Shown here: piece after piece, positions 38,796-40,613 of the stretch
How positions within the stretch are numbered: position 1 is the stretch's first letter
How the letters are laid out: each line of letters opens with the position of its first letter
Assembly: GCA_964016885.1 (NCBI GenBank)
Contig: OZ024751.1
Span: 7,316,001-7,380,000 of the forward strand
Source: Eledone cirrhosa
Taxonomy: Eukaryota
Reading direction: 5' to 3'
DNA length: 64,000 bases
Translations under genes and position numbers: made by a program
The notes under the pieces: model-generated
What the model saw: the letters and a program-made list of their open reading frames with translations, nothing else
Told to the model about the DNA's origin: nothing
The model's database searches: none

Positions 38796-39122
38796 TAATA
38801 TATATAATATATATATATATATATATATATATATATATATATATATATATATATATATATATATATATATATATATATATATATAGTATATTTAGAAACA
38901 CACAGATACATGCGGACACACACATATACATGAATGCATCCACACCCAACCGTGAGTTAATGGTGCCAACCTTACCGATGTTGCTCAATGAATGACTGGG
39001 ACAGACCAATCCGGTTGAACTAGACTGAACCAGTATCAGCGTCAAAAATACATTATGAAGAGAGAAGAAACATTTAGATATAATTAGTAATAAAATGTAT
39101 CATACCTAAACTGCTCCTAGAT

Positions 39123-39212
39123 TCCTCGACTACGTAGTTTCGTGGCATAAACAAAAACAGTACATCATAAAGATATAGAGCCCTTGCGAGGTCTGCCGAC
39201 TTATCAAGAGGA
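39123..39212 (-). ncRNA. Hammerhead U3:A8 variant, family D
   Basis: Reverse complement of 39577-39666. Confidence 0.75.
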
Positions 39213-39576
39213 TACCTCATTTTACTAGCTTCAAGAACGCGTCTACACGACGTGAGAAATAATCCCAAAAGGCGGAGGGGGAGATAGTCACGCGATATAA
39301 CGGTCGAGAAACAGAGCTAAGCCTCTTATAACGCCCGAAGAAAATACCACGGAGGCGGAGGGGGTATTTATATCGAAGCCGTAGAAGAGGTGTTAAAGGA
39401 GGCGAGAAGTATGAGTAATGGCAGCTTTCCAGCAGTCACCACACTTCAAATATTACTCGACCAGAGGCTTAGCTCTGTTTCTCGACCGTTATATCGCGTG
39501 ACTATCTCCCCCTCCGCCCTTTGGGATTCTTTCTCACGTCGTGTAGACGCGTTCTTGAATCTAGTAATATTAGGTA

Positions 39577-39666
39577 TCCTCTTGATAAGTCGGCAGACCT
39601 CGCAAGGGCTCTATATCTTTATGATGTACTGTTTTTGTTTATGCCACGAAACTACGTAGTCGAGGA
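39577..39666 (+). ncRNA. Hammerhead U3:A8 variant with large stem-II insertion, family D
   Basis: Stem I TCCTC/GAGGA; TTGATAA; stem II GT(C)GGCA...TGCC-AC; GAAA; palindromic ACTACGTAGT stem III; GUC triplet (cut after 39661). Confidence 0.78.
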
Positions 39667-40169
39667 ATCTAGGAGCAGTTTAGGTATGATACATTTTATT
39701 ACTAATTATATCTAAATGTTTCTTCTCTCTTCATAATGTATTTTTGACTCTGATACTGGTTCAGTCTAGTTCAACCGGATTGGTCTGTCCCAGTCATTCA
39801 TTGAGCAACATCGGTAAGGTTGGCACCATTAACTCACGGTTGGGTGTGGATGCATTCATGTATATGTGTGTGTCCGCATGTATCTGTGTGTTTCTAAATA
39901 TATTGTTCATAACTCCCTCCGGTCGAGTAATCTTTGAAGTGTGGTGACTGCTGGAAAGCTGCCATTACTCATACTTCTCGCCTCTTTTACCACCTCTTCT
40001 ACGGCTTCGATATAAATACCCCCTCCGCCTCCGTGGTATTTTCTTCGGGGTTATAAGAGGCTTAGCTCTGTTTTTCGACCGTTATATCGCGCGACTATCT
40101 CCCCCTCCGTCTTTTGGGATTCTTTCTCACGTCGTGTAGACGCGTTCTTGAAGCTAGTAAAATGAGGTA

Positions 40170-40259
40170 TCCTCTTGATAAGTCGGCAGACCTCACAAGG
40201 GCTCTATATCTTTATGATGTACTGTTTTTGTTTATGCCACGAAACTACGTAGTCGAGGA
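40170..40259 (+). ncRNA. Hammerhead U3:A8 variant, family D (second plus unit)
   Basis: Same as 39577-39666 shifted by 593. Confidence 0.78.
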
Positions 40260-40613
40260 ATCTAGGAGCAGTTTAGGTATGATACATTTTATTACTAATT
40301 ATATCTAAATGTTCCTTCTCTCTTCATAATATATATATATATATATATATATATATATATATATATATATATATATGTGTGTGTGTGTGTGTGTGTGTGT
40401 GTGTGTGTGTGTGTGTGTGTGTGTGTGTGTGTGTGTGTGTGTGTGTGTGTAAAGGTAGATAAGGTCCTATTTATGTATATCAGGAATGAATGCTGAAACA
40501 CGAAAGCTGCTTACCAGAGAGTTTGAATCAACGGCATAATTTGAATTGTAGAGCATAAATATCCATGCAGGGGAATATGGTATATAGGTCCAGAAGAGAT
40601 CACGGAGTATATT

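Follow-up and report, generated by a model that had tools for sequence, protein, structure and literature searches.

The window analysed here is a stretch of 64,000 nucleotides of Eledone cirrhosa DNA (contig OZ024751.1, positions 7,316,001 to 7,380,000), which is AT-rich, laden with microsatellites, and holds a LINE ORF. Within the region 38800-40400, an inverted copy of a repeat lies head to head with a partial tandem of the same unit, and (TA)n is found on both sides (Table 1). Self-comparison of the window gave a direct-repeat spacing of 593 nt, and the inverted and forward copies were joined via a 5-nt overlap, 39463-39467. The longest ATG frame in the unit was 48 aa on the forward strand and 38 aa on the reverse strand, and the only places in the window that the insert matched were its own three copies. 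The 593-bp period of the original prediction was confirmed by two complete motifs 593 nt apart, and its three copies stood as far as the motifs are concerned; however, 1.46 periods run forward and about one is inverted, instead of three tandem units. Only 10 of the 275 shared positions differ between the window copies, and their agreement is therefore a sign of recent common descent and not evidence of selection. The core, stems, and palindrome that had been called conserved are indeed present in 3/3 copies, but this reflects the same recent descent. Read-through of 38887-39467 together with 39463-40055 would give a hairpin of ~580 bp with 97-99% complementarity, and such a transcript of the whole insertion is likely to be acted on by RNA interference or A-to-I editing.

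Table 1. Features of the 593-nt unit and its borders (positions in the window).
Feature	Position	Strand	Remarks
(TA)n microsatellite, left target flank	38798-38885	.	
Inverted copy, ~581 nt	38887-39467	-	5' end overlaps the forward copy by 5 nt; 3' end enters (TA)n
Hammerhead motif of the inverted copy	39123-39212	-	Core from 39207; cut after 39128
Partial tandem (593-nt unit, 1.46 periods)	39463-40330	+	ORF-free
Predicted distal extension of stem I, 5' strand	39551-39559	+	Partner 39668-39676; prediction only
GAGGT element just upstream of stem I	39571-39575	+	From sequence and folding
Hammerhead motif 1, type I	39577-39666	+	Cut after 39661
Stem II, 59 nt	39589-39647	+	Base helix GT-(C bulge)-GGCA/TGCC-AC
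Palindromic stem III, 10 nt	39651-39660	+	Predicted partner: twin at 40244-40253
Predicted cut-to-cut monomer RNA, 593 nt	39662-40254	+	From the motif cut sites
Major 3' end of the family (39903-39904) and head-to-tail junction to the next unit	39903-39916	+	
Hammerhead motif 2	40170-40259	+	Cut after 40254; GCAA reads ACAA
(TA)n microsatellite, right target flank	40329-40376	.	

A descriptor scan without a length cap detected three type I hammerhead motifs, whose first core letters are at 39582(+), 40175(+), and 39207(-). In motif 1 (stem I at 39577-81/39662-66, TTGATAA at 39582-88, and GAAA at 39648-51), stem I is TCCTC/GAGGA and stem III is a perfect palindrome, ACTACGTAGT. The boxes TTGATAA, GAAA, and GTC are those of a type I core and were present in 3/3 copies; the first box is not CTGATGA and carries the pair U3:A8. 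This core is an already known variant, as the hammerheads of Penelope-like elements (PLEs) are reported, in the available parts of PMC4209133, to include U3:A8 cores, short helices I, and palindromic helices III. Upon folding, all three helices can form, open at helix I as in type I motifs, and the monomer hammerhead fold lay 2.2-5.7 kcal/mol above the free ensemble. In 40 dinucleotide-shuffled windows, the mean number of motifs was 0.1 (maximum 1), and none of the 40 contained a perfect palindrome of at least 8 nt plus a stem I of at least 5 bp. The scan and its control bear out the three hammerheads with a 10-nt palindromic stem III. The two core boxes are separated by 59 nt, 46 of which (39596-39641) lie past the 6-bp base of stem II, in agreement with the predicted insertion of ~45 nt.

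Parts of the unit were found in 20 public sequencing runs, none of which is recorded as RNA, and they are silent on expression. Four of the 23 listed runs were examined (X1, X5, X6, and X13), and the runs with a small share bear 16 other species labels. In X1, 1493 contigs fell on the unit, with a summed depth of ~48,000-615,000 per bin; this amounts to very many copies, with the provisos that depth is not copy number and that the species of X1 may differ from that of the window. Among the loose ends listed, X1 contigs became (AT)n at 39741 and 39903, and both are ends seen in the window: the right-flank end point, which recurs in other copies, is at ~39741 in unit register, while the family 3' end at 39903-39904 continues as (AT)n elsewhere. 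A further 83 loose ends exist besides those listed, and copies linked to an ORF may be among them. The summed depth in X1 fell about sevenfold across 39903, from ~382,000 to 51,000, and rose again toward 40042, the pattern expected if the 3' end is constant and the 5' truncation varies. No comparable step was observed in X1 at the cut site (446,000 to 356,000), from which we infer that the templates are usually uncut or re-ligated. One contig of X6 bridges the head-to-tail junction (39783-39983), and a contig of 471 nt in X13 spans 39463-39904, including the long arm, with a loose end in this run passing into (AT)n at 39904. Because X5, X6, and X13, which carry other species labels, contributed just 3-4 contigs each, mostly at depth 2-6 and with X1's letters, they were not taken as spread to other species. 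As for A-to-I editing as a source of G·U pairs, the window reads G where the family reads A at 9 places, and C where the family reads T at 5, figures that do not discriminate.

The additional letters of stem II were predicted to fold as a long hairpin. Its base is followed by a 6x3 internal loop (39596-601/39639-41) and then by an extension of 14 bp (39602-09/39631-38 and 39612-17/39623-28) with an apical loop at 39618-22. The mean pair probability of this arm was 0.97-0.99 in the three copies, with the majority letters, and in the circle and the tandem, and the segment 39596-39640 had a folding z of -3.66, with 0/200 shuffles equalling it. Four substitutions fall in the arm, namely G39602A (second window copy), G39608A (99.5% of X1 depth), G39626A (31%), and C39629T (~100%), and all are compatible with the fold, three converting G·U into A-U and one being in a loop; a 2-nt deletion also maps to the apical loop. 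These substitutions give mild support to the long arm, as the chance of all three paired ones being tolerated is P 0.18-0.30 and none is two-sided compensatory. The 46-nt insertion is thus read as a predicted 14-bp extension of stem II past an internal loop, and not as a GNRA module. The local hairpin GTC-GGCA-GAC, raised earlier as a competing fold, was minor (P <=0.14), does not dominate, and was rejected.

Searches of the usual kind passed over these motifs. Rfam returned 0 hammerheads in the window at the gathering score, and none of the 12 matches obtained for 38800-40400 at E<=10 was a hammerhead. A pattern scan of metagenomes gave one match, a chance one inside an ORF that presumably encodes an archaeal clamp-loader subunit, and the scan of viral contigs gave none. 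The published min-HHR descriptor (cuganga; stem II of 3-7 bp; loop 2 of 3-10 nt; gaaannuh), as given in the available part of the PMC4209133 supplement, misses the motif on three counts: the core (U3:A8), loop 2 (the 46-nt arm), and stem III (10 nt). The expectation of an expanded architecture that escapes size-limited searches therefore held for both Rfam and min-HHR. High-copy families like the 593-nt unit are left out of hammerhead counts because the descriptors assume at most ~26 nt between the boxes and a C3:G8 core, and this means for animal genomes that entire high-copy families are invisible to present descriptors. Five motifs of the unit were not found in the available part of the PMC8557442 supplement, where line breaks could hide matches. 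In the openly accessible literature that was covered, no animal retrozyme with an arm of this length was listed; a 2017 paper on PLE dimers, PMC5785218, lay outside this set and may describe long-arm variants.

Other hammerheads were observed in the window. A sister non-coding family at 48535-49537 has a period of 321 bp and likewise combines an inverted copy with a partial tandem that ends in (TA)n; it contains U3:A8 hammerheads at 48715(-) and 49338(+), with a 14-nt stem II and a 12-nt palindromic stem III, and a copy near 49017 with a damaged core (TTGATAT). Penelope-type hammerheads at 50085-50155 (+) and 37410-37465 (-), both with a palindromic stem III, have stems II of 36 and 27 nt that are simple hairpins. 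The tandem 28454-29310, of period 466, is adjoined by Hydra-like ORF fragments at 27209-28089 (-), and its hammerheads at 28512 and 28978 each lie inside a long predicted extension of stem I. Minimal hammerhead motifs were also present at 1685 (+) and 41241 (+), the latter having its palindrome, AACAATTGTT, repeated on either side at ~41213 and 41262. No tRNA was detected in the window, and a bacterial promoter scan, irrelevant here, remained at chance level. A Penelope-like ORF of 677 aa, with RT, cysteine linker, and GIY-YIG, spans 12503-14533 (-), and we take it to be Neptune-like; the scans found no hammerhead in its flanks, and the ORF, the nearest of this kind, showed no DNA similarity to the 593-nt unit. 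Fragments matching the Hydra-like protein P0121, a clade label assigned by eye against alignment text, also occur in the window. Animal PLEs with hammerheads were seen inside bacterial MAGs as well (loci L002-L012; proteins P0030, P0042, P0053, and P0097), probably as host contamination, and some proteins of this set are named bacterial GIY-YIG proteins.

Next, the folding of the entire unit was analyzed, and a z of -5.1 was obtained. When the 24 majority changes were introduced, the energy of the circular fold fell to -179.6 kcal/mol, compared with -167.2 kcal/mol before, whereas 204 random change sets averaged -156.8 kcal/mol and 0/204 reached the majority-letter energy; the master RNA is therefore considered more structured than the genomic window copy. 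When the substitutions across the unit were classified (30 rows seen in X1, out of 32 rows of other letters), 14 were unpaired, 9 kept the pair, and 7 broke it (10.0 expected, P 0.13). The palindromes of tandem copies were predicted to form a duplex with P 0.57-0.97, in keeping with the dimer-enabling palindromic helix III of PLE-type hammerheads, and the double hammerhead cost 3.4-9.3 kcal/mol versus 13.1-19.2 kcal/mol for two monomers in 6/6 settings. The pairing probability of stem I was near 0 in most full contexts; two predicted rival helices hold its strands, as GAGG (39571-74) folds back on CCUC and GAGGA pairs with 39728-32. With the family-majority letters, the predicted distal extension closes off a loop of 17 nt upstream of stem I. 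Since stem I is mostly sequestered and the tandem motifs pair by the palindrome, these models predict weak, dimer-dependent cleavage. Weak cleavage in vitro is reported for PLE hammerheads in the available parts of PMC4209133, and dimer-dependent cleavage is mentioned for them in a review summary; among frog retrozyme dimers, 8/9 tested showed no cleavage, according to the accessible part of one preprint. An outer half of the double hammerhead that formed unforced in one setting (stem I P 0.88) was rejected, as it was gone with longer boundaries (P <=0.09).

Collectively, the protein-free 593-nt repeat in (TA)n is probably a non-autonomous Penelope-type element, that is, a non-LTR retrozyme, in which stem II is predicted to be lengthened by a 14-bp hairpin. 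The partial tandem with an adjacent inverted, 5'-truncated copy in a microsatellite and the (TA)n bias are the insertion signature given for PLEs in the available parts of PMC8557442, and internal priming and an AT-rich target preference are reported for PLE RT (PMC11167929, available part). As in retrozymes, there are complete hammerheads in tandem (over 1.46 periods only) and no protein coding, and the family is dispersed in many copies, judged from the 1493 X1 contigs and the recurrent (AT)n ends of a run whose species may differ; animal retrozymes have been proposed to be non-autonomous PLE derivatives. The ORF with RT and GIY-YIG that an autonomous PLE carries within the element is absent from the unit. 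By analogy, the mobilising partner is probably Hydra-like: we infer mobilisation in trans by this type because Hydra hammerheads are in sense, near the 3' end, and at (TA)n, with a similar stem II base and stem III. The unit had no sequence similarity to autonomous elements in the window, and blastn gave no match, such as homology to a Hydra 3' end would produce, in 11 Hydra-type loci of other hosts; position, orientation, and target agree.

The life cycle of such an element may be outlined as follows. The tandem locus would be transcribed, and two hammerheads of the multimer would pair via the palindromic stem III and cut weakly, with the rival helices usually holding stem I. Uncut multimers or re-ligated circles would then serve as templates for the RT/GIY-YIG protein that an autonomous PLE supplies, most likely of the Hydra clade, with priming in (TA)n ~240 nt downstream of the cut site and, less often, ~80 nt downstream. 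The long arm would most likely be peripheral and tolerated, its hairpin stabilising stem II and aiding compact folding. Junction reads of a circular RNA cannot discriminate here, because the junction of the 39662-40254 circle is identical to the genomic tandem sequence.

It is doubtful, on the whole, that the motif is a dead or irrelevant relic, with the element spreading on uncut RNA and the arm being a drifted expansion of an inverted repeat. The near-zero pairing of stem I and the poor in vitro cleavage by PLE hammerheads fit this account, and the lizard PAc element was reported to use uncut RNA in vitro, inserting without need for cleavage (available part of the source). Moreover, stem II lengths of 11, 14, 27, 36, and 59 nt within one window suggest loose constraint. 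However, no X1 variant at >=8% falls in the core, stems I-III, or the palindrome, and C3 and G8 have changed as a pair. In addition, a low-depth X1 contig matches only 39573-39666, with 16 other letters and 3 gaps; this corresponds to the ribozyme plus the long arm, and hints at conservation in a diverged family.

A tentative and rather doubtful alternative gives the arm the role of a switch. The GAGGT element, unaltered both in the inverted copy and at 40164-40168 but with T at 39571 in the 39571-39575 copy, can fold back on the CCTC of stem I or pair with ACCTC in the stem II loop. In the latter case, the loop ACCUC (39597-39601) would capture GAGGU upstream of stem I, and this pairing would block the GAGG fold-back and dock stems I and II as a pseudoknot, with the distal hairpin presenting the loop. 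The contact is a perfect 5-bp match of -6.5 kcal/mol as a duplex in 2/3 window copies and the family majority, although its fifth pair is lost in one window copy and GAGGU has alternative partners, AUCU/AUUU, downstream. A shuffled 17-nt loop gets 5 bp in 3.5% of trials, a value that overstates the match because it was noticed after looking at several candidates. Where the ACCUC contact is absent, the GAGG/CCUC fold-back had P 0.54-0.96 in the GAGGU copies; these values come from a folding program that cannot score pseudoknots. Neither strand has an X1 variant at >=8%, except for the private T39571 of the window copy, but a variant-free stretch of 36 nt is expected in ~16% of cases at such divergence, by our own estimate. 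Covariation lends no support, as no diverged homologue was readable in the metagenomes (one chance match) or the viral contigs (none). In natural hammerheads, ~40% are predicted to have a stem I-II pseudoknot (available parts of PMC3088659). It is unlikely, in our view, that the family is a very high-copy animal retrozyme with a self-gated hammerhead, in which cutting needs both the ACCUC:GAGGU contact and palindrome pairing and which stands for a hidden long-armed U3:A8 class overlooked by Rfam and the published descriptors; such a class may explain some PLE families said to have half a core. If the pseudoknot is true, this would be a natural regulated hammerhead, and a means to test why Penelope-type ribozymes cut poorly in short constructs, from which the activating strand is maybe left out; if it is false, the unit is one more retrozyme family bearing a long hairpin.

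Another unlikely explanation is that an autonomous element of the Hydra or Neptune type has the unit as its 3' end, or pseudo-LTR, and has been inserted here 5'-truncated and without its ORF. Hydra elements carry their hammerheads sense-oriented and close to the 3' end, and favour (TA)n as a target (PMC8557442 File S1/S2, available parts), most PLE hammerheads are in truncated copies (PMC4209133, available parts), and the window has the Neptune-like RT/GIY-YIG ORF and the Hydra-like fragments. Nevertheless, past 39903 the next unit extends ORF-free for 593 nt until it reaches this end again; the start of the inverted copy is nearly there (39916), the X6 contig spans the same junction, and the share of X1 contigs running on into unlike sequence was 0. 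Finally, it is highly improbable that the hairpin CTC-GCAA-GGG, with its GNRA cap, serves within stem II as a module for tertiary contacts or protein binding: the letters originally predicted, CCTC-GCAA-GGG, occur in only 2/3 window copies, the one at 40195 reading ACAA as G39602A ruins the loop, while G39608A breaks the closing pair at 99.5% of X1 depth, and the hairpin had a pairing probability of 0.00 in all three copies and would cost 9.5-10.8 kcal/mol in the window copies and 15.5 with the majority letters. A tertiary contact may exist, but it would join ACCUC with GAGGU instead of involving a GNRA loop.

Among known systems, the available parts of the descriptions of non-LTR retrozymes (PMC7229834; bioRxiv 10.64898/2026.07.22.740005) show the same protein-free, head-to-tail organization, in which each period has a single type I hammerhead; the length of 593 nt is within the reported range of 51-972 bp, and the class has been proposed to be of Penelope-like origin. 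The unit differs in its mode of dispersal, by short insertions in (TA)n that combine an inverted copy with a partial tandem, and in its PLE-type hammerhead (U3:A8, 5-bp stem I, long stem II), whereas retrozymes have canonical 6-bp/4-bp stems with a loop-loop contact. With regard to the loop 1-loop 2 contact of the 2020 retrozymes, the stem sizes here are non-canonical and the only candidate is a 5-bp pseudoknot. Compared with the pseudoknotted natural hammerheads of PMC3088659 (available parts), the putative contact would differ in joining two internal loops and in also removing an inhibitory fold-back.

The metazoan PLE hammerheads (PMC4209133), especially those of the Hydra clade (PMC8557442), share with the unit, in the parts available, the type I topology, the short stem I, the bulged stem II base, the palindromic stem III, the known U3:A8 core, the sense orientation near the 3' end, and the (TA)n target. 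The Hydra-type loci that we analyzed also share the GT-bulge-stem...AC-GAAAC base and 10-nt near-palindromes, with core boxes 11-24 nt apart (17 motifs in 6/11 loci), and the Hydra rows in the available part of PMC8557442 File S2 have at most 26 nt, counted by eye. Unlike these, the unit has 59 nt between the boxes and no ORF attached. The other window motifs have 11, 14, 27, and 36 nt, and the Selaginella PLE-X1 hammerheads, marked as deviating from canonical in File S2, have ~54 and 48 nt (by eye, available part); the arm lengths therefore form a continuum, in which the 59-nt arm stands at the long extreme and has a precedent. The PLE-X1 motifs resemble the unit in having a long arm II within a Penelope-like element, but they belong to a plant and to endonuclease-less, rDNA-targeted, ORF-bearing elements with a C3:G8 core, and the likeness is one of layout. 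Eight Naiad families, marked in the available part of PMC8557442 File S1 as half cores 35-50 nt apart, may likewise be long-armed hammerheads of this kind. The 593-nt unit is thus a real feature, and its hammerhead motif is a long-armed variant of the known retrozyme/PLE hammerhead type.
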